Origin: Minisyncoccia bacterium
Lineage (GTDB): Bacteria > Patescibacteriota > Minisyncoccia > Phycocordibacterales > UBA9973
Assembly (NCBI GenBank): GCA_039809245.1
Contig: JBDHUP010000001.1
Coordinates: 100,137-164,136 of the forward strand
Direction of reading: 5' to 3'
DNA length: 64,000 nucleotides
The notes below the pieces were generated by a model. It made no database searches. It had not been told where the DNA came from and was given only the letters and a program-made list of their open reading frames with translations. This document shows positions 39,147-64,000 of this stretch, one piece after another (the first letter of the stretch is position 1; the number at the start of each line of letters is the position of its first letter). A program made the translations under genes and the position numbers.

Positions 39147-39180
39147 ATATAAAAACTCCGCTTGCGCAGAGTTTTTATAT
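39147..39180 (-). terminator. Rho-independent terminator of ssrA
   Basis: aaaaactccgc...gcagagttttt inverted repeat directly downstream of the tmRNA 3' end. Confidence 0.55.
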
Positions 39181-39182
39181 TG

Positions 39183-39578
39183 TGGAGATGGGCGGAGTTG
39201 AACCGCCATGCAAAAGAAGTTCATAGGTGAATCTACATGTTTATCATGTTCGATTGGGTTTAAACGGGAAAGCTAGAGAACAGGCAATATACTTTCGCGC
39301 CGAGCTCTTCATTGTCGGAATTCTATGCAAGCGGTATAAAATTCGTAACCCGATTAATTATGCCTCCCCTATTTATCGGATGTCGATAAGAGAGACACCT
39401 GACCGGCTTAAGTTAAGCGAGTACAGGAGCAAAGTTTAAACCAAATGCGTTAGCAAATGGTGACTTTACTGAAGCGACTTTGTTTGCACTTAGTCTTTTC
39501 CAAGAAGTTTAGAAAGATTCCTGGGTACTTTACATGCACATCTATGAGTGACGTCCTTTGTCGAAGCCCGTCATCCCC
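39183..39578 (-). ncRNA. ssrA: tmRNA (SsrA), standard one-piece form. The tag reading frame at 39413..39487 encodes ANKVASVKSPFANAFGLNFAPVLA-stop.
   Basis: 5' end is GGGGATGACGGGCTTCGAC. 3' end is GGCGGTTCAACTCCGCCCATCTCCA, with acceptor GGGGATG/CATCTCC including the G3:U70 pair. Resume context GACUAAGU GCA AAC matches the E. coli UAGUC GCA AAC context. smpB is adjacent. Confidence 0.85.
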
Positions 39579-46738: not shown

Positions 46739-49480
46739 TTATCCTTGCTGTCTATACTTATCCATAATCTCGGCTTCGACTTCTTCGCGCTCACGGCCAA
46801 ACTTCAAATATGAAAGCTCTTTAATCTTCTCGACTATCTCTGGTGTCCCTTGTGGTGGTGGAAATGTGGCAATATTGAATGGCTTTGTCGGCTGGCCATT
46901 TATGAGCATCGATATATATGCATTACGATTCTCAATTTTCATAATATCAGCTGCAGAGAATACAGGCTTGAATTTGTTTTCGAGGAATTGCGCATCTTCG
47001 CCACCGACTCGGAACACAGCCATAGAACCAACGTTGCCGAAAACAGCATCTCGAATATTCTCTTCAAGTTGAGCTATATACTGGTGAGCAACAGTTAGAG
47101 ATAAGCGGTACTTACGAGCTTCAGATAGAATAGATTCTATGGAGTCAGTAGTCACGTTTTGGAACTCGTCTATATACAAGAAGAAGTCTTCCATTTTTTT
47201 ACCATACATATCTACACGAGAAAGCGCGGCCATTTGTATCTTGTTTACAATTAAAAGACCTATTAGATTCGCATTTATATCGCCAAGGCGTCCTTTCGAA
47301 AGGTTCACAAGCAAAATCTTTTTATTATCCATGATATCTCGGAAGTTGAACACTGATTTCTCTTGAAGGACCACAGGGCGCATGATGTCATTCGAAATAA
47401 AATTATCGAATTTTGAAGTGATATATGGCACGAAGTTGGCAATAGATTGATCACCTGTTGTTTGCTCTGCACTCCTCCAGAACTGAGTTATTATTGGGTT
47501 CTTACAGTGTGAAAGCTTCATATCACGGAATTCTTTATCCGCAAGAACGCGACCAATCTCAAGTAAAGTTGCTCCAGATTCAGGATGCTCCATCACAAGG
47601 AAAGCTGAGTTTTTGAAATACTGTTCGAACATTGGACCTCCAGATGTCTTCATATCAAAAAGCTTGTTAAAGATATTCATTAATTCGTTAACTACAAAAG
47701 TCTTCTGCTCTGGATACTTTGGATCATACTCAAGCATATTGAGCCCCATAGGTCGCGCTGTGTAAGCCGGATCGAAATAAATAACGTCGTCAATTCGCTC
47801 TTTTGGAATGTAGCTAAGAATATCTTGGATATCTGTACCATGCGGATCAATATAACAAACTCCGTGACCGGCTTTGATATCCTGAGCGATCATATTCTTC
47901 ATAATTGTAGTCTTTCCTGTACCTGTTTGACCTATAACATACAAATGGCGCATTCGATCTTCATCAGCAAAGTGTACTTCGGTATCTTTCCCTCTATAAC
48001 TATTTATACCGAGCTTAATACCTTCTGATCCCATCTCTATTGGAGCAGGGGCTATGCCAGCACGAGCTTGTTTGAGCTGAGGAGAGACGATGCCATATGG
48101 GAAGTGAAAGATTGTAGCAAGCTCTTTGAGATTTAGTGGCATAGAATACTTCTGTGAAAACATACGATATGAGAAATCGTGAACCAGTGCATTCAAGTCA
48201 GAACCTTGTGGGTGATTAAAATTAAAACTATTACGGTGTGATTCAGTGAATTGATTAAAAGAAGATTCAATATCAGCTAGAATCTGATCCGCGCGAGTTT
48301 TGCTTTCCGCCGAAGCAACGATACGAATATTGGCAGCCATTATAGTACTCTTCATTTTCTCTGTAATGCTTTCTATCGCTTTGTCGTTGATCTTTTTCTC
48401 TTCTTTTTCTTTTGATTCACCGAAAATCATGCCTTTTGCTAACTTACCGAACTCTTTACCGAATTGACGAACAACACTAGAAGCTGTTTTAACTGACATT
48501 CCCTCTTTGACATCACCTAATATAGTGTGGAATTTTTTTATTATTTCATCATCCTCTGGACATATTGTGAATTGTATTGAGGCTCCTTCACCAGACTTCT
48601 TAAGTTTAGTGAAAACATTAAGAATTATATTTAGTGGATCGTGGTCTATGGCGTCATATAATTTGATAGGATAGACCTCGTAAGAATCAAGGGTGGCATA
48701 AGAAGCTGAGATGGCTCCCCCTTCGGAGAAAATATTATAATCATCAGGCACTTCGACAATCTTGGCATGAGAATGGACTCCGAGTAACTGTTTCTCAAAT
48801 AGATCAGCTTTATGAGTAGGGACAGCTGTGTAGAATATAAAATGGTCAGTATCTTCTGCTAGAGCAATCTCGAGAGTAAAGTGATTACGGTTATAATTCT
48901 CACGACCTTCACCGACTGAATGCATACCGGCATAGAACTGCTCCATAGCTGAAAGTAACTCCTTTAAACTTTTCTTATTCTTCTCATCATCTTCTGGGTC
49001 AGGTAGAGTGATCTCGAAAAGCTTCATATCTAGAGATTTAAACAGTGGTGTTCCCTCCTTGAGTCCTGGAATCTTATGTGTACTATATAAATACTGGACT
49101 AAGAAACGATGGAAATCATCATCTAGATGGGGATTATTCATCTTACTTATTACAGAAAGAGCGCTAGATATACCTTTACTTAGAAGGACTCCTAGCATTT
49201 CCTCCATTTTATTATCATGTGACTCTGGGTGAAGACGAAGAACAAGCTTTTCTTCTTCTCCTTCTTTCATTACCACATTCTTATGCATTACTTCGTGTGG
49301 TTCAAGCTTTTTGTACTCTTGGATTACATCGTGAGCGAGTGCTTCCTTCGAATATTCTTGACCTTGTTCGCTTAGAGATCTTTCTTTCTCGGCGAGATGC
49401 GCACGTAAAAATTCAAGCTCCTCTTGTGGAGTTTTGAACTTTGGAGCATTGTTTAAATTAAAACCTTCCATTGTATTCAT
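46739..49480 (-). CDS. Large P-loop NTPase of the VirD4/TraG/HerA-FtsK-like superfamily, preceded by a roughly 470-aa N-terminal region of unknown function
   Basis: Walker A VIGQTGTGKTT. Walker B FFLYIDEF. Arginine-finger-like YRLSLTVAHQ. 913 aa. Confidence 0.45.
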   Translation of the reverse strand: MNTMEGFNLNNAPKFKTPQEELEFLRAHLAEKERSLSEQGQEYSKEALAHDVIQEYKKLEPHEVMHKNVVMKEGEEEKLVLRLHPESHDNKMEEMLGVLLSKGISSALSVISKMNNPHLDDDFHRFLVQYLYSTHKIPGLKEGTPLFKSLDMKLFEITLPDPEDDEKNKKSLKELLSAMEQFYAGMHSVGEGRENYNRNHFTLEIALAEDTDHFIFYTAVPTHKADLFEKQLLGVHSHAKIVEVPDDYNIFSEGGAISASYATLDSYEVYPIKLYDAIDHDPLNIILNVFTKLKKSGEGASIQFTICPEDDEIIKKFHTILGDVKEGMSVKTASSVVRQFGKEFGKLAKGMIFGESKEKEEKKINDKAIESITEKMKSTIMAANIRIVASAESKTRADQILADIESSFNQFTESHRNSFNFNHPQGSDLNALVHDFSYRMFSQKYSMPLNLKELATIFHFPYGIVSPQLKQARAGIAPAPIEMGSEGIKLGINSYRGKDTEVHFADEDRMRHLYVIGQTGTGKTTIMKNMIAQDIKAGHGVCYIDPHGTDIQDILSYIPKERIDDVIYFDPAYTARPMGLNMLEYDPKYPEQKTFVVNELMNIFNKLFDMKTSGGPMFEQYFKNSAFLVMEHPESGATLLEIGRVLADKEFRDMKLSHCKNPIITQFWRSAEQTTGDQSIANFVPYITSKFDNFISNDIMRPVVLQEKSVFNFRDIMDNKKILLVNLSKGRLGDINANLIGLLIVNKIQMAALSRVDMYGKKMEDFFLYIDEFQNVTTDSIESILSEARKYRLSLTVAHQYIAQLEENIRDAVFGNVGSMAVFRVGGEDAQFLENKFKPVFSAADIMKIENRNAYISMLINGQPTKPFNIATFPPPQGTPEIVEKIKELSYLKFGREREEVEAEIMDKYRQQG

Positions 49481-50399: not shown

Positions 50400-51014
50400 T
50401 TATACAACTTCCTGCTGATAGCAGGATTCACAATACAAAATAGGAGCAGTTTCTTTGCTTAAATTAGTAGTTACTTCTTTATTACAATTTGAACACTCTC
50501 TTGTAAAGAATTTGAATTCACCACGACGAGTGAGGCGATCCTTATGGCGACAGAAGAAACATTTACGTGGTAATGGTAAGTACATCTTCTTGTAGAAAAG
50601 TAATTCTTGCTCAGTAATTTTATAATTACGTTCGCAGTCCTTACAAACTAAAATTTCATTTGTAATACTATCTAATACCTCATCTATATGGTCAGGGATT
50701 TGTTCAGGTTTAAGTGTTTCTTTACCTTTTGTCATCTGAATATCATCTTCCCATCGAAAACCTAAAGACAAAGCTTCTTCTTTAGTTAAAGGAAAATTAT
50801 CTTGACCAATTGTTTCATTGTAAGCAAAAGGTGCAATATGTGCTGGCATCATCAGACCATGTACTCCTTTGTCTGTAAGCTCTCTTACAATATGATCTTT
50901 CAGTTTTAAATATTCTTCTTTCGAATACTCTTTATTAAAAATTGAATACTTACCATTTTTAAGAGCATCACAACCAATACATTCTTGGCAGTTCCTAATA
51001 TCAAAAGAATACAT
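50400..51014 (-). CDS. Cys-rich zinc-ribbon protein with a C-terminal CxxC...FYKKM.LP.P..C..CR module
   Basis: Reads CKDCERNYKITEQELLFYKKMYLPLPRKCFFCRHKDRL...CSNCNKEV...CESC. Confidence 0.5.
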   Translation of the reverse strand: MYSFDIRNCQECIGCDALKNGKYSIFNKEYSKEEYLKLKDHIVRELTDKGVHGLMMPAHIAPFAYNETIGQDNFPLTKEEALSLGFRWEDDIQMTKGKETLKPEQIPDHIDEVLDSITNEILVCKDCERNYKITEQELLFYKKMYLPLPRKCFFCRHKDRLTRRGEFKFFTRECSNCNKEVTTNLSKETAPILYCESCYQQEVV

Positions 51015-51133
51015 AATATCACTTGAATTTTCAGCCCAATATGAGCCAATAATATTACTAGAATAACCTGTAGCTACAACTTCAAGTAGTCGCTCAGATT
51101 TTGTACCATAGCCTATAGTTCCAAGAGAATCTT

Positions 51134-52066
51134 TTATTTTGTTTTAGATGAAAATAAATAACGACAATCTTCAGCCTTTGCGGCCTCAAAAGAATTAAAA
51201 ACATTTTTGCATTCATTTAAATAATCCCCAATTGAATTTGTTGTTTTTAAATTATTATTTTCCCTTCTTGGCAAAGTTTTACAAAATTCTTTAAACTTTT
51301 CTTTAGCTTCTTCAAATTTTTGATAGCTTCCTTTTATCTCCTTAAGCTTATTTAAATATTCTTCAGAACTTAATTGTTCATTAAACCAACAATGACTCTT
51401 ATTTCTTAAGTTAACACAACCAAAACAATTAGTTAGTCCACTACCATTTAATATGAAATATGAATCCACGCAACCATTAACATTTTGACCCCATATAGTG
51501 CTTGCTGATTCTTGAACGTTAACACACTCATAACAACGTTCAAAACTGACTCCAAAATAAATATCTGATGAATCAAGACCATTTTTAACACCTCGAGAAT
51601 AGAGTAATTCGTCAGCGGGACTTGTATTAAAAACAAGATAGCAATTTTTACAACCACCAGCCATATTTACATATTCACTATTTATATTTTGACCATCTCC
51701 AGTAGAAATACCCAAGTTTATTTTTGGTACTTTTATTAAAAATTCTTTCATTTGATCGAAGAATGGGCGTGATATATCATAATCTATAGAATAATCTTTT
51801 GGGTCCCATTTCTCAGAATAAAAACAATCATAACAATAAATTGTATATGGTGATTTAGGGTTATACATAGACATTACACTTTTTTCGCATAATCCGCATT
51901 TTCTTCCTGAATATAATGTCAGCTCATTACGCCAAACAGCTCTCATCTTAAAACGACATTCGGGGCAAACATGTGGAACAGGAACTTTCATCTTCTTATA
52001 GAAAGAAAAGTCGTCGGATTCGATATTGAAGGAGTTTTTGCAGTTTTGGCAGACACGAGTTTCCAT
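51134..52066 (-). CDS. Cys-rich zinc-ribbon protein with an N-terminal CxxC...FYKKM.VP.P..C..CR module
   Basis: Reads CQNCKNSFNIESDDFSFYKKMKVPVPHVCPECRFKMRAVWRNELTLYSGRKCGLCEKSV, plus further CxxC pairs. Confidence 0.5.
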   Translation of the reverse strand: METRVCQNCKNSFNIESDDFSFYKKMKVPVPHVCPECRFKMRAVWRNELTLYSGRKCGLCEKSVMSMYNPKSPYTIYCYDCFYSEKWDPKDYSIDYDISRPFFDQMKEFLIKVPKINLGISTGDGQNINSEYVNMAGGCKNCYLVFNTSPADELLYSRGVKNGLDSSDIYFGVSFERCYECVNVQESASTIWGQNVNGCVDSYFILNGSGLTNCFGCVNLRNKSHCWFNEQLSSEEYLNKLKEIKGSYQKFEEAKEKFKEFCKTLPRRENNNLKTTNSIGDYLNECKNVFNSFEAAKAEDCRYLFSSKTK

Positions 52067-52089
52067 ATATTGTATTGTACACGAGGAGC

Positions 52090-52776
52090 TTAATGTATCA
52101 CAGTACCCAAGAATTTGTCTCCATTTAAGTAATTTTTAAGATTATCTATATTCTTACCATTCATTATGACTACTTCGAGCTCTAGTTCTTCCGCTTTCTC
52201 TGCGGCTATTGGGTCAAATGGTGCGTTGAGTCCTGGGTTCCATTCTGAAGGAAGAATTTTACGGAAGTCTGCCCATGAAGATTGCTCTATCTTTACTGCA
52301 TCTGGGAACTTTTTCGGATCTTTATCATAAGCATAATCAATATTTGAAAGATTAATCACAACTTTGGCTTTAACGCTATTTGCAGCGTGAACAGCAGCAA
52401 GGTCACTAGAGTTCCCTGGTTTCCAGCCACCACCAAGAATAACACCTTTATCGGTTTGTGGGACAGCATCTGGATCCATCACTATAGAACTATGAGCTAT
52501 ATCACCGAAGCTGACTCGCAAGAGTTCAGCATTGAGTCTAGTAGAAGCAATTCCTATCCAATCTAAATCAATATCATTTGAATCTGATATTTTTTTTAAT
52601 GATTCTATGTAGTTGCGCGCAGTATGTCCGCCACCAGTAATGACGACAAATCTAAAACCTTTATCTATATATTCTTTTATAGTGTTAACAAACTCTTTAA
52701 TGAAAACTACATCTATCTCATTAGGAACAATGAGTGACCCACCAAGTGAGATGATAATGTAATCTTCTTTATTCAT
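52090..52776 (-). CDS. pyrH: Uridylate (UMP) kinase, amino-acid-kinase fold
   Basis: Reads IIISLGGSLIV...FVVITGGGHTARNYI.... 228 aa. Confidence 0.6.
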   Translation of the reverse strand: MNKEDYIIISLGGSLIVPNEIDVVFIKEFVNTIKEYIDKGFRFVVITGGGHTARNYIESLKKISDSNDIDLDWIGIASTRLNAELLRVSFGDIAHSSIVMDPDAVPQTDKGVILGGGWKPGNSSDLAAVHAANSVKAKVVINLSNIDYAYDKDPKKFPDAVKIEQSSWADFRKILPSEWNPGLNAPFDPIAAEKAEELELEVVIMNGKNIDNLKNYLNGDKFLGTVIH

Positions 52777-53429: not shown

Positions 53430-54701
53430 TTAATACTCTCTCATTGATAGTTGAGCTTCAACTTTCTTGATTAGATCAAGAACAACAGAAACAACAATCA
53501 GAAGAGCTGTACCCCCGATAGCGAAAGCTGTAATACCTGTGACTGCTCGAACAATAAGAGGAAGTACAGCAATTAATCCAAGAAATACAGCGCCCATCAT
53601 AGTGATACGATTCAAAATCTTCGCAATGTAATCACGAGTAGCCGGACCTGGACGGATACCTGGGATAAACGCACCGTTTTTCTGAAGATTAGTAGAGAGT
53701 TGGTCAGGATCAAAAGTAACAGCAGTATAGAAATATGTAAACAAAAATACAAAGATAAAGTAGAAGAGTGAATACAACCAAGTATTACCAACGAACCATA
53801 GAAGTCCCTTTGAGATACTTAGTAATATATGATTACTACTAGCGGCAAGGAAGTTACCAATCAGCTGAGGAAATAGCATTATAGAAAGAGCGAAGATTAT
53901 CGGGATAACTCCTGCTTGGTTCACACGTAGTGGTAGATATGTCTGAGTACCACCGGCAACCTTGTCCCCTCTGACTTGCTTAGCATAAGTTACAGGGATT
54001 GGTCTTTCAGCTTCAGAAACAACAACAACACCAGCAACAATAAGAAATCCTACAGCAAGGAAAAGGATATAGACTGGAAGGTTAGACATATCGAAAGTAA
54101 ATAGGAATTGAGAAACTTCCTTTGGAATGTTCGCTACTATACCAGCAAAGATTATAAGTGAGACACCATTACCAATACCGAACTCAGACATTAACTCTCC
54201 GATCCACATTATAAGAATTGAACCAGCTACAACAACTGAAAGGTTAGCAAACATCGCAAATGGTGTTAGGTCTACAAGGATACCTTGACGCTTTAGAACT
54301 ATAAGCAAACTCAAGCCTTGAATAACTGCAAGCGGGATAGTTATCATTCTACTTAGCTGTGTAAACTTCTTGCGTCCAATCTCCCCATCTTCCTGATATA
54401 AAGCTTTAAGTCTTGGAGACATTATAGTTAGAAGTTGCATTATGATTGATGAAGTAATGTATGGACCTACTCCAAGCATAAGAATAGATAAGTGAGATAG
54501 CCCACCACCAGAGAAAAGGTTTAGCACTCCAAGGAACTGATTATTAGCTATAAAAGACTGAAGTTTTACTGAATCGATTCCAGGAATAGGAATGACTGAA
54601 AGTAGTCGGAACACAATAAATGCACCTAACACGAATAAGACACGAAATCTCAGTGCCTTATCGGTGAATATCATTTTTATTTTGTTCCAAACAGTTTCCA
54701 T
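53430..54701 (-). CDS. secY: Preprotein translocase subunit SecY
   Basis: 423 aa with 10 TM helices and canonical SecY motifs. Confidence 0.95.
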   Translation of the reverse strand: METVWNKIKMIFTDKALRFRVLFVLGAFIVFRLLSVIPIPGIDSVKLQSFIANNQFLGVLNLFSGGGLSHLSILMLGVGPYITSSIIMQLLTIMSPRLKALYQEDGEIGRKKFTQLSRMITIPLAVIQGLSLLIVLKRQGILVDLTPFAMFANLSVVVAGSILIMWIGELMSEFGIGNGVSLIIFAGIVANIPKEVSQFLFTFDMSNLPVYILFLAVGFLIVAGVVVVSEAERPIPVTYAKQVRGDKVAGGTQTYLPLRVNQAGVIPIIFALSIMLFPQLIGNFLAASSNHILLSISKGLLWFVGNTWLYSLFYFIFVFLFTYFYTAVTFDPDQLSTNLQKNGAFIPGIRPGPATRDYIAKILNRITMMGAVFLGLIAVLPLIVRAVTGITAFAIGGTALLIVVSVVLDLIKKVEAQLSMREY

Positions 54702-54703
54702 AT

Positions 54704-55132
54704 TTATTTAACGCTCCCTCCTGCTTTTTCGATTTTAGTACGAGCAGAAGCTGAGACTGTACATCCTTCGATAGATAACTTCACATTTATCTCTCCGTTG
54801 CCGAGTATCTTTACACTAGAAGCTGTTCCACCTGATCGTCGGATAAGGTTCTTCTCAAGTAGTGTTTTAGGATTTACAACTGATCCTGAAGCAAAAACGT
54901 TAAGTTCTCCTACATTCACTGGAGTTGCTTTCTCTGTGTGAGAAGCAAATCTATATCCTCGAAGTTTCGGGATCTTCTTTATTATATCACGCATCTGTGG
55001 GCGACGTTTATTACCTGCGCGAGCTGTCTGACCCTTACCTCCACGGCCTGAAGTCTTACCACGAGTACCTCCACGACCTACTTGTCGTGCTTTCTTATTT
55101 GGATGTTCTCTTTTTAGTGTGTTTAATTGCAT
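54704..55132 (-). CDS. rplO: 50S ribosomal protein L15
   Basis: GRGGTRGKTSGRGGKGQ motif. Confidence 0.9.
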   Translation of the reverse strand: MQLNTLKREHPNKKARQVGRGGTRGKTSGRGGKGQTARAGNKRRPQMRDIIKKIPKLRGYRFASHTEKATPVNVGELNVFASGSVVNPKTLLEKNLIRRSGGTASSVKILGNGEINVKLSIEGCTVSASARTKIEKAGGSVK

Positions 55133-55138
55133 AAAATA

Positions 55139-55744
55139 TTATTTAACTTCTTCTTTATCTTCAGCTATAGCATCAGTTACTACTGGAGCCACTTTCGGAA
55201 GTGAAGATTTAGCACGAAGCTGATAAAGTGTCGCATATGCTACACGGGCATTGTTAAGTTTATTCTTACTACCTGAGTTAAGCTTAGCTGTAACGTTCTT
55301 TAGTCCTGCAAGAATCAGCATATCGCGAACAGTACTACCAGCTACAAGACCTTTGCCTCGATTAGGCATCATTGTGAGTTTTGAACTTGAGAATTTATCA
55401 GATACTTCATGAGGGATAGACATATCCTTTGTTGTCTTTATCTTGAACATATTCTTCTTTGCTTGGCGAAGAGCCTTTGCAATAGCAAGAGCAGTATCTC
55501 CACCCTTACCTGTTCCAAGTCCAATTGAACCTTTCTTATCACCAATAGCAAGAGCAACAGCAAATGTCATACGGCGTCCTCCAGCAACCACACGAGTCAC
55601 ACGGCGGATAGAAACCATCTTCTGGTCAAATTCTGGCTTTGGTCTCTCGAAGAAAGCACGTGGCTTGCGCTCACCTCCTTCTCTACGTGGACCATTTGAA
55701 GATCTTGTACCTGCTGTATTATGATTTTTCTTTGTTGTATCCAT
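55139..55744 (-). CDS. rpsE: 30S ribosomal protein S5, with an N-terminal basic extension
   Basis: IRRVTRVVAGGRRMTFAVALAIGDKKGSIGLGTGK. Confidence 0.9.
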   Translation of the reverse strand: MDTTKKNHNTAGTRSSNGPRREGGERKPRAFFERPKPEFDQKMVSIRRVTRVVAGGRRMTFAVALAIGDKKGSIGLGTGKGGDTALAIAKALRQAKKNMFKIKTTKDMSIPHEVSDKFSSSKLTMMPNRGKGLVAGSTVRDMLILAGLKNVTAKLNSGSKNKLNNARVAYATLYQLRAKSSLPKVAPVVTDAIAEDKEEVK

Positions 55745-55753
55745 ATATTTATA

Positions 55754-56095
55754 TTAAAACTTAAGACCAGCTTCACGAGCTCCATCTGCTAGGGCTTTCA
55801 CACGACCAGTGTATTTAAAACCATTACGATCAAATACGACTGCTTTGATTCCCTTCTCTATAGCAAGTTTTGCAACTGTAGCACCAGTAGCTTGAGCTCT
55901 CTCTGTCTTTGTGCCTTTCTTAGTAGCCATATCAGAAGCAGATACTAATGTAAGTCCTTTTGCATCATCGATAACCTGCGCATAGATAAACTGATTTGAT
56001 CGGAAAACAGAAAGGCGAGGCTGTGTAGAAGTACCGTTTATCTTGTTGCGGATTTTTTTCTTTAATCTTATTCTTTTTTCTAATTTTTTGTTCAT
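55754..56095 (-). CDS. rplR: 50S ribosomal protein L18
   Basis: Reads [18 protein letters not shown]... Confidence 0.9.
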
Positions 56096-56112
56096 AATAG
56101 AAATTTAAATAA

Positions 56113-56649
56113 TTATGCAGCCTTCTTACCTTGCTTGCGACGGATAACTTCATCAGAGTATCGGAATCCTTTACCTTTGTATGGTTCTGGTTTCTTCATT
56201 CCACGGACTGAAGCAGTAAATGAGCCAACTAATTCTTTATTCATCCCTGAAACAGTAATAATATTCTTATCAGCAGTGACAGTAAGACCTTCTGGGATTG
56301 GGACTTTCACAGGGTGTGAAAATCCTAATGCAAGGTTTAGAACTGAACCTGCGACATCTGACTTGAATCCAACTCCTTCTAGAATAAGCTTCTTAGTGAA
56401 ACCATTATTTACTCCTTCAATCATATTCTTCACGTGTGAAGCGTATGTGCCCCATAGTGCGTTTACTGTTCTGTCTCCTACTTTATTTGGAGTGAAAGTT
56501 ATCTCACTTCCATTGATATTTATAGTTATATCACCAGGAAAATCGCGAGTAAGTGTACCCTTTGGTCCTTTCACAGAGAAAGTAACACCAGATAGATTTA
56601 CTTCTGTACCTGTGGGAACTATTACTGTTTGTTTTCCTATACGTGACAT
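56113..56649 (-). CDS. rplF: 50S ribosomal protein L6. The start is the internal Met of the ORF-track entry.
   Basis: Reads MSRIGKQTVIVPTGTEVNLSG.... Both L6 repeat domains are present. Confidence 0.9.
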   Translation of the reverse strand: MSRIGKQTVIVPTGTEVNLSGVTFSVKGPKGTLTRDFPGDITININGSEITFTPNKVGDRTVNALWGTYASHVKNMIEGVNNGFTKKLILEGVGFKSDVAGSVLNLALGFSHPVKVPIPEGLTVTADKNIITVSGMNKELVGSFTASVRGMKKPEPYKGKGFRYSDEVIRRKQGKKAA

Positions 56650-56653
56650 ATAA

Positions 56654-57040
56654 TTACCAAAGTTTAAATAAAACTTCACCGCCGACCATTTCTTTGCGAG
56701 CTTGTTTGTCTGTTAAAATTCCTTTTGGTGTTGTAAGAACCATTAATCCGAAACCATTGCGTGTAGGCTTAATAGCTTTTACTCCTTTGTAGACTCTGCG
56801 TGATGATTTTGAAACGCGTTCTACTCCATTAACTCTAGGTTTACCATCTGCATAAGCAAGGCCAAGTTCAAGAATTGGAAAGCCTTTCTTTGTCTTTTTT
56901 GATACTGAAGTAAGGAATCCTTCTTTTACTAGGCATTCTGCTATAGCAAATTTAATCTTTGAATATGGAACAGTAACAAACTCGTGTTCAGCACGAGAGC
57001 CATTCTTTATCATATTCACCATGTTTGCGATTTGATCCAT
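56654..57040 (-). CDS. rpsH: 30S ribosomal protein S8
   Basis: Reads MDQIANMVNMIKNGSRAEHEFVTVPYSK... Confidence 0.9.
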   Translation of the reverse strand: MDQIANMVNMIKNGSRAEHEFVTVPYSKIKFAIAECLVKEGFLTSVSKKTKKGFPILELGLAYADGKPRVNGVERVSKSSRRVYKGVKAIKPTRNGFGLMVLTTPKGILTDKQARKEMVGGEVLFKLW

Positions 57041-57052
57041 ATAGTTTAATTA

Positions 57053-57238
57053 TTACCAACTTGATTTACGAACACCTGGAAGCATACCTTCGTTTGCCAT
57101 TTCACGGAAACAGATACGGCAAAGTCCGAAATCTCTCATATATGCATGACCGCGTCCACAGCGAAAACAACGATTTGTTTCTCGTGTTGAAAATTTTGAT
57201 TTCTTATGATGTCTTGCTAATACTGATGTTTTTGCCAT
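57053..57238 (-). CDS. rpsN: 30S ribosomal protein S14, type Z (zinc-binding)
   Basis: 61 aa with [20 protein letters not shown]. Confidence 0.9.
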
Positions 57239-57382
57239 AAATAATGAAAGGGATTTTGTTCCCCTAGTGATTTCGAGATATCTCGTTCTTTTTCTTAAAA
57301 GCTTTGGCCCTTAAGGAGAAGCACGGATCTACGACTCACGTTCCCCTATACTAGCAGATAGGGTTATCTATGTCAAACTATT

Positions 57383-57805
57383 CTATTTACAGTTAATACC
57401 AGCTCTATATCCTGGTTCTTCTAGTTCAGTAGTATAGAAACCTTTACTGTCAGCACAATAGTACTTACCTGCTGGGACCTTGATACGAGCTGTGAATGTA
57501 TGGACATTGGCAACACATTCGACAGGGTTATCTATCACCTTCTTTAAGGCATCGAACTTAGATTGCATACTTACACAGATGTTGTTGTACTTAGAAATAA
57601 AGTAGTTATTGTGATCGTAGAAGAACTTTTGAGCTTGGATTTGAAGCTGATTTGAGACAACGTCTTTAATTATAGCTTCAGCAGAAGCTGTATCCTTTGC
57701 TTTTAGAGATCTTTGGAATTCAGCATTCTGATCGAGTTTGAAATATTTATATCCAGCGAATATTAGTATCGCAAATCCTATAATAAACAATATTAGCTTA
57801 GTCAT
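57383..57805 (-). CDS. Hypothetical membrane-anchored protein inserted between rplE and rpsN
   Basis: N-terminal TM segment (LILFIIGFAILIFAGY). C-terminal domain has 4 Cys. Sits between rplE and rpsN. Confidence 0.45.
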   Translation of the reverse strand: MTKLILFIIGFAILIFAGYKYFKLDQNAEFQRSLKAKDTASAEAIIKDVVSNQLQIQAQKFFYDHNNYFISKYNNICVSMQSKFDALKKVIDNPVECVANVHTFTARIKVPAGKYYCADSKGFYTTELEEPGYRAGINCK

Positions 57806-57836
57806 ATTTTCATTATACCATCTACCTCCAAATCAA

Positions 57837-57858
57837 AAAGCCCTTTGCGGGGCTTTTA
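57837..57858 (-). terminator. Strong rho-independent terminator immediately downstream of rplE, inside the spc block
   Basis: aaaagccc tttgcg gggctttt hairpin, followed by a T-run on the minus strand. Confidence 0.65.
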
Positions 57859-57865
57859 TGGAAAC

Positions 57866-58405
57866 CTACTTTTTGAATGGGAACCCGATGAGTTCGAAGA
57901 ATTCGGTTGCTTCAGGCTTTGTTTTAGCTGTTGTAACGATTGTTACGGCCAGTCCGAATATATCTTTGATATCTTCATCACCTGTCTCAGGGAAAATAGT
58001 GTGCTCCTTGATACTCATAGTTAGGTTTCCTATATTATCCACGATCTTTCGATCAACTCCACGGAAGTCTTTTGTTCGAGGGATAGCTACATTAATTAGC
58101 TTATCTAAGAATCCATACATGCGTGCTCCACGAAGAGTAACCATAACACCGATTGGGTCACCTTGGCGCATCTTGAAGCTTGCGATAGATTTCTTTGCTC
58201 CACGAGTTGCAGGCTTCTGACCTGTAATCTTTGCTAGACGCTCCATGATGAACTTATTGCGATCTTTATCACGCTTGATACCACTTCCAGTACCTGAAGC
58301 CACAACAACTTTTACAAGATGAGGCGCGGCCATAGAACTCTTATATCCATACTTAGATTTTAGAGTCGTATATGCTTTCTTTTCTTTTTGTTTTACTGTT
58401 TCCAT
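57866..58405 (-). CDS. rplE: 50S ribosomal protein L5
   Basis: 179 aa with canonical L5 sequence. Confidence 0.9.
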   Translation of the reverse strand: METVKQKEKKAYTTLKSKYGYKSSMAAPHLVKVVVASGTGSGIKRDKDRNKFIMERLAKITGQKPATRGAKKSIASFKMRQGDPIGVMVTLRGARMYGFLDKLINVAIPRTKDFRGVDRKIVDNIGNLTMSIKEHTIFPETGDEDIKDIFGLAVTIVTTAKTKPEATEFFELIGFPFKK

Positions 58406-58423
58406 AATATTTAAATTCTTACG

Positions 58424-58642
58424 TTACTTTTGTAGAGCTACATTTGATACGTGTATAGGCATTGCGATCTCAAGTATTTGACCTTGCTCACCACGCTTTG
58501 TAGCCTTGCGAGACTTCTTTCTCACGTTTACACCTTCAACTACCACCTTATTCTCGGCTGGAATTGCTTTGATAACTTTGCCTTTCTTTCCTTTGTTTGC
58601 TCCGGCAATTACTATTACATTGTCTCCTTTCTTGATTTTCAT
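58424..58642 (-). CDS. rplX: 50S ribosomal protein L24. The start is the internal Met MKIKKGD.
   Basis: KOW motif [20 protein letters not shown]. Confidence 0.85.
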
Positions 58643-58652
58643 ATAAATGTAT

Positions 58653-59024
58653 TTAAATAACTTCTTGTGCAAGTGAAATAATCTTCTGGTATCCTCGCTC
58701 TGCAAGCTCGCGTGGAATAGGACCGAATACACGACCACCTCTTGGATCTTGCTTATCTTTTTCTAAAATAACAACCGCATTGTCGTCAAAGCGAATATAT
58801 GATCCATCCTTTCGGCGGAAAGCCTTCACTGTACGAACAACAACGGCCTGACATACATCCTTTTTCTTCACTCCTTTACGAGGTTCAGCAATCTTCACTG
58901 AGATGATAACTTTATCACCTATACCAGCATAGCGACGCTTAGAAGATCCAAGCACCTTGAAAACTTTTCCCACCTTTCCACCGGCGTTATCTGTTATATT
59001 TACTACTGTTCCATCTTGTATCAT
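58653..59024 (-). CDS. rplN: 50S ribosomal protein L14
   Basis: [17 protein letters not shown]. Confidence 0.9.
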
Positions 59025-59031
59025 ATAATTT

Positions 59032-59277
59032 TTATGCTACTACTTTAAACTTCTTATCTTTAGAAATTGGACGAGTTTCCTCTATTTCAACCATATCACC
59101 AATCTTCTTCGTATTATCCTCATCATGAGCTTTGTATTTCTTTGACTTCTTAATGCGCTTGCCGTACTTACTGTGCTCCACGAAACGTGTAACTTCTACG
59201 ACAATTGTCTTATTCATCTTGTCTGAAACGACAACACCTTTAAGAATTTTATTTGGTTTTATATCTTTTTTATCCAT
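59032..59277 (-). CDS. rpsQ: 30S ribosomal protein S17. The start is probably the internal Met MDKKDIK.
   Basis: Reads [29 protein letters not shown]... Confidence 0.85.
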
Positions 59278-59281
59278 ATAA

Positions 59282-59698
59282 TTATCGTGCAACTACGCGA
59301 GTGGTAACTGGTAATTTTGTACCGGCTTTGCGAAGAGCTTCTTTAGCAACAGCTTCAGATACTCCATCAACTTCAAATAGTACTCGGCCTGGGCGAACGT
59401 CTAGGCAGTAACCTTGTGGATCACCTTTACCCTTTCCCATTCCTACTTCTGCCGGCTTTGCTGTAAAAGGTCTGTCAGGGAAAACTCGAATCCACATACG
59501 GCCAGTCTTGCCGATAGTACGTGAAGTAACTTTACGTGCTGATTCTATCTGATTTGCACGGATACGTCCACCTGCAGTAGCTTTCAAGCCATATGATCCG
59601 AAGGCAACAGTAATACCACGAGTGTCAGGAGTGACCTTTGTCATGTCGGTACGGCTTGTTTGCCATTTTCTAAATTTTACTTTTTTTGGTGTTAACAT
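59282..59698 (-). CDS. rplP: 50S ribosomal protein L16
   Basis: Reads [16 protein letters not shown]... Confidence 0.9.
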
Positions 59699-61336: not shown

Positions 61337-62098
61337 ATGAACAAGTCACAAACTCAAGATTTGATTAACCAATATGGTTATGACAATCTTAAACTTCTTG
61401 AAGCTGTTGGTGGTTTTTATGAAGTTGCAAAAAATGCCGAGGGTAAACGTTTAACACCTTTAGTTGGCTATGCTGGTAAATACCCAAAAAATGGCCAGGA
61501 ATTTCAATACGTTGGGGAAGTTTATGTGAACTTTGCGAAAGCAGAGGAGCATCCCCACATAATGTACAACTTCGCCAAAAAGCTTTGGGACAAGTTAAAA
61601 ATCCATGAGCCTATAGTATTTATTGGGCCAGCAATGGGTGGCATTTCGGTGGCACAACTCTTAACACTACATGCTTCACAAGACACCAAAGCCAGGTATG
61701 CTTGTGCTGAGAAAATTGTTACGGTAGCAAAAACTGCAACCACTGAAGAACAATCTTCTTTTTCTATCTTAAGGCACAGCCTCTACCCCGGAGAAACAGT
61801 TGGAATTGTTGAAGATGTATTGAACAATTTTTCTACAACGGATAAATTAATCCGGCTTGTAGAATCGTACGGGGCAAAGGTTGGTATTATTGTTGGACTT
61901 TTAAACCGTTCAACAAAAATTGATTCAGTATACATGCACAGAGGTCAACCAATCCCTGTTGTTTCTTTAATAAGAAAATTATTTGAAAGTTACGAGCAGG
62001 AAGATCTGTATGTAATTGAAGATGTGGCAACCGACAATGTAGTTTGGAAGCCAAAGAATGACTGGGATAAATTAAAAAAGGCTGCTGAGAAAAAATAA
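61337..62098 (+). CDS. pyrE: Orotate phosphoribosyltransferase-like type I PRTase
   Basis: PRPP-binding motif VGIVEDVLNNFSTTDKLI. pyrF is adjacent. Confidence 0.5.
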   Translation: MNKSQTQDLINQYGYDNLKLLEAVGGFYEVAKNAEGKRLTPLVGYAGKYPKNGQEFQYVGEVYVNFAKAEEHPHIMYNFAKKLWDKLKIHEPIVFIGPAMGGISVAQLLTLHASQDTKARYACAEKIVTVAKTATTEEQSSFSILRHSLYPGETVGIVEDVLNNFSTTDKLIRLVESYGAKVGIIVGLLNRSTKIDSVYMHRGQPIPVVSLIRKLFESYEQEDLYVIEDVATDNVVWKPKNDWDKLKKAAEKK

Positions 62099-62118
62099 CT
62101 CAACAGCAAGGCAAAAAT

Positions 62119-62150
62119 AAAAAGCAGAATTTAATAATTCTGCTTTTTAA
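62119..62150. terminator. Bidirectional terminator between pyrE (+) and pyrF (-)
   Basis: aaagcagaatta/taattctgcttt palindrome flanked by A/T runs. Confidence 0.6.
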
Positions 62151-62165
62151 ATTTATTCTCTTTTT

Positions 62166-63110
62166 TTATGCAAACTCGCCATATTTTTTACGGCGGAATG
62201 CCATGATCTTACCATTCAAATCCACAATATAATTGTTACACACCTCGGCATAATCTTCATTTTTGGAACCATACAACGCTGCCCGGGAAACATTAAGGAC
62301 AATTCGTCCTCTTCTCGTCATGCCGGCATCAAGCGATGCTTCAAGATCACCTTCCTGTGTACCGTGACCAGGAATTAGTAAGTAGCGATCGTCACCAATT
62401 ATTCGGCGAACAGCTGCCATGTTTTCAGGATACGTTGCCCCGGTAACAAGGCCTACATTAGGTGACCAGGTAATAGCTTTCTTTGCCACGTTTTGATAAA
62501 GCGGTAAAATTTCACCGTTCAAATTAGCTGTAACAATTTTATCCCACCAATCCATCTTGCCAACTCCATCTGGTATGGCAGCAGGATTAAAAGGAAGAGT
62601 CCATAAACCTTGGATTTCATCAGCTTTTTCATTCGATGTCTGGCAAAGGACAAAAACTAACTTATCTCTTAATACTTCTTTTTCATCAACCATCTTAAAA
62701 AAGAACGGCTTATTAGCTTCGCCACCTAAATAAGGAGCAATTGTAAAGGCATCAAATATTTCCAGCATTTCCATATAAGCCATGTTTGTATTGCCAATGT
62801 CTCCACGTTTTCCATCTCCAATTAAAAAAACATCTGGAAATTTTTTTCTGATATACCTTACAATTTCCTCAAGCATTGATATGCCCTCGCCACCAAACCG
62901 TTCGAAAAAAGCCAGGTTGGGTTTATATGATTGTACATTACCACCGGTGGCAACAATGATATTAAGAAGAAAATCATAACAAGCAGTTATTTTTTCCTTT
63001 AAACCATCGCCTTTTACACTTTTTGGTAGTTTATCATAGTCTACATCGAGACCAAGACAACTGTAGCGCCCTAAGGCAGCTAAATTAGAGAGAATCTTGT
63101 TGTAATTCAT
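62166..63110 (-). CDS. pyrF: Orotidine-5'-phosphate decarboxylase, long type-2 form
   Basis: DxKxxDIxxT motif (IGDGKRGDIGNT). 314 aa. Confidence 0.7.
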   Translation of the reverse strand: MNYNKILSNLAALGRYSCLGLDVDYDKLPKSVKGDGLKEKITACYDFLLNIIVATGGNVQSYKPNLAFFERFGGEGISMLEEIVRYIRKKFPDVFLIGDGKRGDIGNTNMAYMEMLEIFDAFTIAPYLGGEANKPFFFKMVDEKEVLRDKLVFVLCQTSNEKADEIQGLWTLPFNPAAIPDGVGKMDWWDKIVTANLNGEILPLYQNVAKKAITWSPNVGLVTGATYPENMAAVRRIIGDDRYLLIPGHGTQEGDLEASLDAGMTRRGRIVLNVSRAALYGSKNEDYAEVCNNYIVDLNGKIMAFRRKKYGEFA

Positions 63111-63240
63111 CGTATTTAGTTTTAAGTGAAAATTATTGTTTGATTCAAAAGCCCAGAAAAGGCGCTTAAATCAAACAATAATAACCATCACAATTTCGTG
63201 AAATTCTACTGTAAATATAATAATTAGTCAAACAGAGGTT

Positions 63241-63627
63241 TTAGAAGATAAAAATTTTCGGGAGGAAAATTATCAGTCCGACTAGGCCGGCGATGGCGAC
63301 GGTTATGAGAACTGCACCAGCGGCGACATCTTTTGTATCGCGAGCATATGGATGATAGTTCGGACTAGTAAGGTCAACTTCAATTTCAATAGCAGTATTT
63401 ATCGTCTCAGCGAGAATAACGAGGCCGATTGCGAAAATTATAGCGATCCACTCCAAAGATGATATATGTAAGATAATACCAAGATATATAGCTAAAACTG
63501 AAAAGAAAACGTGGACCCATGCATTGTGAGTAGTCCTGATGAAAACTCCTATGCCACGAAATGCATGAGTAGTACTCTTTATCCTTTTGACTATTGAGAA
63601 TCTTTTCTTTTCTGATAGCTTTTCCAT
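63241..63627 (-). CDS. dgkA: Diacylglycerol/undecaprenol kinase (DgkA family). The start is the internal Met MEKLSEKK.
   Basis: Three TM helices and the motif ETINTAIEIEVD. Confidence 0.7.
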   Translation of the reverse strand: MEKLSEKKRFSIVKRIKSTTHAFRGIGVFIRTTHNAWVHVFFSVLAIYLGIILHISSLEWIAIIFAIGLVILAETINTAIEIEVDLTSPNYHPYARDTKDVAAGAVLITVAIAGLVGLIIFLPKIFIF

Positions 63628-63642
63628 TGCTTTAGTATACAA

Positions 63643-63670
63643 CAAAAATACCCCTTTCGGGGTATTTTTG
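63643..63670 (-). terminator. Rho-independent terminator immediately after rplB
   Basis: caaaaatacccc tttc ggggtatttttg hairpin flanked by T-runs. Confidence 0.6.
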
Positions 63671-63675
63671 TTTTT

Positions 63676-64000
63676 TATCCTTTCTTTGATTTTCCTACCT
63701 TTCGGCGAGAAACAATCCACATATTTGAGTACTTCTTTGGAGTGCGAGTCTTCTGACCTTTTCCAGATGGCTTACCCCACTTAGTCTTAGCACGGCGTAG
63801 ACCTCGTCCTTGTGCTCCTTCACCTCCTCCGTATGGGTGATCAACTGGGTTCATAGCACTTCCTCGAACTGTAGGTCGGATACCCTTCCAGCGAGAACGT
63901 CCTGCTTTACCAAAGTTTTGAAGTTTATATTCAGAGTTTGAAACTTCACCAATTGAAGCGTAACAATTTTCAGAAACTTTTCGAACTTCTGTTGATGGCA
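63676..64000 (-). CDS. rplB: 50S ribosomal protein L2. C-terminal part only; the N-terminus lies beyond the window end.
   Basis: Translation reads ...[62 protein letters not shown]-stop. Confidence 0.9.

Follow-up and report, generated by a model that had tools for sequence, protein, structure and literature searches.

The S10-spc ribosomal-protein operon of a Paceibacteria bacterium ('Candidatus Nomurabacteria'-like; Candidate Phyla Radiation, CPR) lacks two genes at their usual places, rpmC (uL29) and rpmD (uL30). We analyzed this operon in a stretch of 64,000 nucleotides (nt) of contig JBDHUP010000001.1, which is called the window below. In it, rplP (uL16) directly adjoins rpsQ (uS17) and rpsE (uS5) directly adjoins rplO (uL15). 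The missing rpmC is a real, clade-wide deletion that this genome shares with the other members of its clade. That the gene was lost, not relocated, appears quite likely. The explanation as a whole, in which rpmD and rpmC were both deleted and the ribosome contains neither uL29 nor uL30, is the best available and in our judgement likely. The two proteins are small and lie on the surface of the large subunit; uL29, which has two helices, is located beside uL23 at the rim of the exit tunnel.

The operon lies on the minus strand. The ATG of rpsQ at 59277 comes 4 nt after the stop codon of rplP (TAA, 59284-59282). A preliminary description, made from the letters of the window, had seen no room for rpmC between these genes, and with both flanks confirmed by Pfam this is correct. 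It had given 59277 or 59292 as the start of rpsQ. The ATG at 59277, which yields a protein of 81 amino acids (aa), fits the S17 N-termini of relatives and independent gene calls, and the TTG at 59292 is unsupported. The Pfam models are covered essentially end to end by L16 (positions 1-132 of 132) and S17 (1-67 of 68), so no L29 domain is fused to either protein.

An L29 profile was built from three canonical L29s together with the genes in the rplP-rpsQ slot of 43 relatives; the L30 profile was based on three canonical L30s. The seeds were validated: the 21 relatives' L29s that were tested and all six canonical seeds matched PF00831 or PF00327. The whole 64 kb was translated in six frames, divided from stop to stop into pieces of at least 25 aa and searched with hmmsearch. 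No L29 was found in any frame of the window (best E-value 0.27). As a positive control, the same profile recovered L29 at 1e-19 to 1e-29 in every relative with room for the gene. The negative six-frame search rules out a hidden or overlapping L29 open reading frame (ORF), both at the junction and in the rest of the window. A small ORF overlapping the rplP/rpsQ junction in another frame had been raised earlier as a case to check; the search found none that resembled L29.

The second junction gave the same kind of result. The start of rplO at 55132 comes 6 nt after the stop codon of rpsE (TAA, 55141-55139), which leaves no room for a gene of about 60 aa. The 6-nt gap and the absence of rpmD from it, both stated in the preliminary description, were confirmed by the sequence and by the Pfam matches of the flanking genes. 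No L30 was detected in the window by six-frame hmmsearch (best E-value 3.5). A hidden Markov model (HMM) search of 82 loci, from 80 relatives and two contigs of the same organism, returned no L30 match: none of the 80 relatives has L30 at the searched loci.

The relatives are 80 species-representative genomes retrieved by L16, with 68-95% identity. The closest are Paceibacterota or 'Ca. Nomurabacteria' metagenome-assembled genomes, up to 95% identical. Nearly all of the 80 are labelled Paceibacterota, Nomurabacteria, Patescibacteria, Parcubacteria, Minisyncoccia or Saccharibacteria. The exceptions are a few labelled "bacterium" only and one (locus L043) labelled Burkholderiales; several of the Saccharibacteria labels come from third-party assemblies. 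The L16 identity to CPR genomes and the clustering in the tree described below bear out the CPR assignment made earlier for this DNA.

L16 adjoins S17 in 37 of the 80 relatives, and in these genomes the flanking sequence, about 6 kb to each side, contains no L29. Their L16-S17 spacer is 1-62 nt long (median 5). The other 43, which are the more distant ones, carry an L29 (PF00831) of 59-74 aa in the usual slot, and the slot measures 212-403 nt. A neighbour-joining tree with 100 bootstraps was computed from a concatenation of 11 ribosomal proteins (1372 columns, 80 taxa). In 100/100 bootstraps the window formed a single clade with 33 L29-less genomes. Members of this clade include RAAC4_OD1_1 and GW2011_GWD2_36_14. 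The L29-less locus L056 grouped with the L29-bearing loci L038, L040 and L041, also in 100/100 bootstraps. Since L056 is nested with L29-bearing genomes, at least two independent deletions took place and the loss is recurrent. L29-less L035/L037 and L044 sit in the tree beside L29-bearing L054 and L046 and may represent further independent losses.

The longer spacers of the L29-less relatives were inspected for remnants of the gene. In locus L004 (62 nt) and in L012, L013 and L019, no L29 match was found. A 132-nt gap seen with tblastn in L019 contains an ORF of 50 aa that continues in frame into S17 and does not resemble L29; if a different S17 start is taken, the rplP-rpsQ spacer of this locus is 54 nt. 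The spacers of L012 and L013 (32-35 nt) contain a GC-rich palindrome (e.g. acctgcctgccggcaggcaggt) in otherwise AT-rich DNA, which might form a hairpin or represent the insertion of a small repeat.

From these observations the following history can be proposed. rpmD would be absent through evolutionary deletion, as in CPR generally. A clean excision of rpmC would have taken place in the common ancestor of this genome and the rest of its clade, which counts at least 34 species-level genomes, and would have left 4 nt between rplP and rpsQ. Most probably, the large subunit, and hence the ribosome, would then be assembled without uL29 or uL30. Such a ribosome presumably works without uL29, and the genome presumably has no copy of rpmC elsewhere. 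Spacers of a few bases are typical along the whole operon, which is a tightly packed polycistron. Since the two junctions have spacers of 4 and 6 nt in such a polycistron, S17 and L15 are most likely translated by coupling to the upstream gene.

A different account is that rpmC moved outside the window, so that a functional L29 gene lies elsewhere and the ribosome keeps uL29. We consider this unlikely, with a small but real chance of being right. The preliminary description had allowed for a further reduced ribosome as well as for relocation of the gene; on balance our evidence favours loss. The operon is already rearranged, with three non-ribosomal genes between rplB and rpsS and one between rplE and rpsN, which makes a move easier to accept. 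Three further points weigh against loss. The search for L29 covered the 64-kb window and, in each relative, about 12 kb, which may leave room for a relocated gene. A metagenome scan with four sister-type L29 sequences as query yielded one short contig, L127, on which L29 (1821-1991) lies behind non-ribosomal genes. Two ORFs take the place of rplP in L127, one of 208 aa and one of 235 aa, the latter with hydrophobic segments, and the contig ends just after L29; the L29 gene can therefore leave its usual neighbours in some other CPR lineage. Finally, a divergent relocated L29 could rank below the matches that we inspected in two L29-profile searches of 5.8 billion proteins, namely the best 120 of 2555 and the best 120 of 422.

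The remaining evidence points the other way. Beyond the negative result in the window, none of the 37 L29-less relatives has a relocated L29 in the 6 kb that flank the operon on each side. The metagenome scan returned 80 loci: 77 were canonical or limited by a contig edge, two were canonical with a wider L29-S17 spacer, and the remaining one was L127. In the two protein searches, none of the best 120 of 2555 and best 120 of 422 matches lay on the long L29-less contigs, which were recognized by their nucleotide size, a weak proxy. The contigs compared were 840184, 704521, 693530, 350459, 327635, 211995 and 150384 nt long, the three longest being CBFHKH010000001.1, LBRL01000001.1 and AWSN01000001.1 (RAAC4_OD1_1); for all except the 704521-nt one, the presence of their proteins in the collection was confirmed. 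Loss is favoured because repeated clean excision in neighbouring lineages, at least two independent events, fits a dispensable and often-lost protein better than repeated relocation, which is the less parsimonious course.

We also compared two other proteins, uL24 and uL23, across the relatives. uL24 is a 72-aa protein here and lacks the C-terminal approximately 29 aa. The 72-aa and 101-aa forms alternate among closely related Paceibacteria (loci L003-L082), so these C-terminal residues have been lost repeatedly. Truncation of uL24 was rejected as a correlate of L29 loss, since both forms occur in L29-bearing relatives. The uL23 gene lies upstream, beyond the end of the window, and was read in relatives (loci L003-L032 for the main clade). 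In the main L29-less clade uL23 is 104-113 aa long; 24-31 of its residues precede the PRITEK motif, and its N-terminus is extended by a conserved, Lys-rich stretch of about 18-20 residues (e.g. MATTKTKKNTKE...KTHPLIKGPRITEK). In most L29-bearing relatives uL23 is 89-95 aa long, 7-14 residues precede the motif, and a stop codon upstream precludes a longer form. No rRNA gene was found in the 64-kb window.

These data allow a bolder proposal, in which this group of Paceibacteria is repeatedly dismantling the protein ring at the peptide exit: there were at least two and perhaps four losses of uL29, uL24 was cut to 72 aa in many lineages, and uL23 gained a Lys-rich tail that may take over the rRNA contacts of uL29. 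We regard it as improbable. If true, the group would provide a series of naturally minimal exit sites at which the signal recognition particle, trigger factor or SecY docks in an altered way.

It is very unlikely that, uL29 being lost, its place at the tunnel exit is taken by the Lys-rich uL23 extension or by an unrelated small protein. The longer uL23 of the main clade, compared with most L29-bearing relatives, fits such compensation. However, the extension is not specific to L29 loss. Partial extensions are already present in the L29-bearing sisters L046, L054 and L070, and 7 of 9 uL23 from L29-bearing metagenomic loci have 34-68 residues before the PRITEK motif. The idea is weak because L29-bearing loci thus carry even longer N-terminal regions, and because extra N-terminal regions of uL23 have been reported for some CPR (PMC9297842). 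The 140-aa ORF between rplE and rpsN was rejected as a substitute ribosomal protein: it begins with a long hydrophobic stretch, has four cysteines, matches no family and was found only in the closest relatives (L003, L006, L007 and L010) and in assemblies of the same organism.

An artefact of assembly, binning or sequencing is hardly conceivable: ribosomal-protein genes can drop out of metagenome-assembled genomes through assembly or binning errors, as stated in PMC9723686, but both junctions lie inside contiguous sequence with intact flanking ORFs, and they recur in separately made assemblies of this organism as well as in the 33 other species of its clade. Assemblies of the same organism from SRR19427084 and SRR23083762 have L16 next to S17 with a complete L16 called. 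In the SRR15221268 assembly the gene upstream of the called S17 is truncated by the end of the contig, and the SRR23083766 assembly begins at L14 with the same gene order downstream. An assembly artefact is excluded because these independent short-read assemblies give the same gene order.

The features of the region are listed in Table 1. In the direction of the minus strand the gene order is rplB, dgkA, pyrF, a pyrE-like gene on the opposite strand, rpsS, rplV, rpsC, rplP, rpsQ, rplN, rplX, rplE, the 140-aa ORF, rpsN, rpsH, rplF, rplR, rpsE, rplO, secY and adk. rplB runs past the end of the window.

Table 1. Features of the ribosomal-protein operon and its surroundings (positions in the window).
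Feature	Position	Strand	Evidence or remark
dgkA	63241-63627	-	between rplB and rpsS
pyrF, type 2	62166-63110	-	between rplB and rpsS
pyrE-like phosphoribosyltransferase	61337-62098	+	between rplB and rpsS
rplP (uL16), 138 aa	59282-59698	-	PF00252, 1.7e-42, full-length; stop TAA 59284-59282
4-nt spacer 'ttat', usual place of rpmC (uL29)	59278-59281	-	sequence read
rpsQ (uS17), 81 aa, ATG start	59032-59277	-	PF00366, 2.3e-30; independent gene calls also 81 aa
rplN (uL14)	58653-59024	-	PF00238, 1e-44
rplX (uL24), short 72-aa form	58424-58642	-	KOW domain and ribosomal_L24 positions 1-33 of 65
rplE (uL5)	57866-58405	-	PF00281 and PF00673
inserted 140-aa ORF, non-ribosomal family	57383-57805	-	no Pfam or NCBIfam match
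rpsN (uS14), 61-aa form, two Cys pairs (CxxC)	57053-57238	-	PF00253, 1e-23
rpsH (uS8)	56654-57040	-	PF00410 in gene calls of identical contig L001
rplF (uL6)	56113-56649	-	PF00347 in gene calls of identical contig L001
rplR (uL18)	55754-56095	-	PF00861, 1.9e-39
rpsE (uS5)	55139-55744	-	PF00333 and PF03719 (N- and C-terminal domains); stop TAA 55141-55139
6-nt spacer 'tatttt', usual place of rpmD (uL30)	55133-55138	-	sequence read
rplO (uL15), 142 aa, ATG start at 55132	54704-55132	-	PF00828, 4.8e-16
secY, next operon gene	53430-54701	-	PF00344 in gene calls of identical contig L001
tmRNA gene	39180-39578	-	

Several other genes around the block were noted. Three non-ribosomal genes split the S10 operon between rplB and rpsS (61337-63720), and a dgkA homologue lies upstream in the locus, on the same strand as the operon, in 26 main-clade loci. 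Downstream of adk (50400-52776, minus strand) there is a UMP kinase of the archaeal type (TIGR02076, 187.8 bits versus 54.7 for the bacterial type). It is followed by two Cys-rich ORFs of 204 and 310 aa with many CxxC pairs, for which no family scored above threshold, and then by map. Directly downstream of map, in the usual place of infA, rpmJ and rpsM, lies a gene for a 913-aa protein (46739-49480, minus strand) with weak matches to coupling ATPases of the VirD4/TraG/TrwB type.

uL29 often serves as a universal marker gene. Its genuine absence would depress the completeness estimates for genomes of this clade and would cause gaps when their ribosomal proteins are concatenated for phylogenies. 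The paired L29-plus and L29-minus relatives would be a handy set for comparing the changes in 23S rRNA and in uL23 and uL24 that accompany the loss. With 34 species-level genomes and L29-bearing sister lineages, the clade adds a phylogenetically nested case to natural ribosome reduction. The addition is modest and opens no new biological question.

The absence of L30 had been called a known hallmark of CPR bacteria in the preliminary description, and Tsurumaki et al. (2022, PMC9297842) describe it as general: uS5 adjoins uL15, and none of the CPR genomes that they examined yielded uL30. The operon studied here is alike, with S5 followed directly by L15 and no rpmD, and its host is likewise a member of Paceibacteria/Parcubacteria. 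The Ala/Lys-rich C-terminal tail of uS19 that the same paper describes for Parcubacteria is also present here. We found no notable difference from these operons; this is the textbook CPR state.

The absence of L29 from its usual slot had been called less commonly reported than that of L30. It is indeed rarer: among CPR, the searchable literature names the loss only for "some Peregrinibacteria". Tsurumaki et al. report that some Peregrinibacteria are also without uL29 and treat this as a lineage-specific loss in CPR. A search for Parcubacteria with L29 returned only the preprint of that study, which names only Peregrinibacteria for the loss. The searchable literature contained no paper pairing Nomurabacteria with L29 and none naming this clade, and the genome paper of RAAC4_OD1_1 (PMC3812714) does not discuss ribosomal proteins. 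The two cases are alike in that rpmC is missing from a taxonomically restricted set of CPR. They differ in lineage, which here is a subclade of 'Ca. Nomurabacteria'/Paceibacteria that includes RAAC4_OD1_1 and GW2011_GWD2_36_14. The present loss is, moreover, recurrent and lies nested between relatives that carry L29.

Outside CPR, a survey based on Clusters of Orthologous Groups (bioRxiv 10.1101/2021.01.31.429008) places L29 with L9, L25, L30 and S21 among the frequently lost surface proteins. This survey counts L29 with the ribosomal proteins that small genomes lose most often and also with the early-binding proteins that can still be lost or deleted, and symbiont genomes without L29 only, or without both L29 and L30, are on record. 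The symbionts 'Ca. Uzinura' and 'Ca. Walczuchella' resemble the present case in having lost L29 in a reduced genome, and 'Ca. Fokinia solitaria' in lacking both L29 and L30. However, these symbionts belong to unrelated phyla (Bacteroidota and Alphaproteobacteria), and their losses are independent events. Compared with all of these, the L29 loss of the present clade is a new and well-delimited instance of a kind of event that has already been described.

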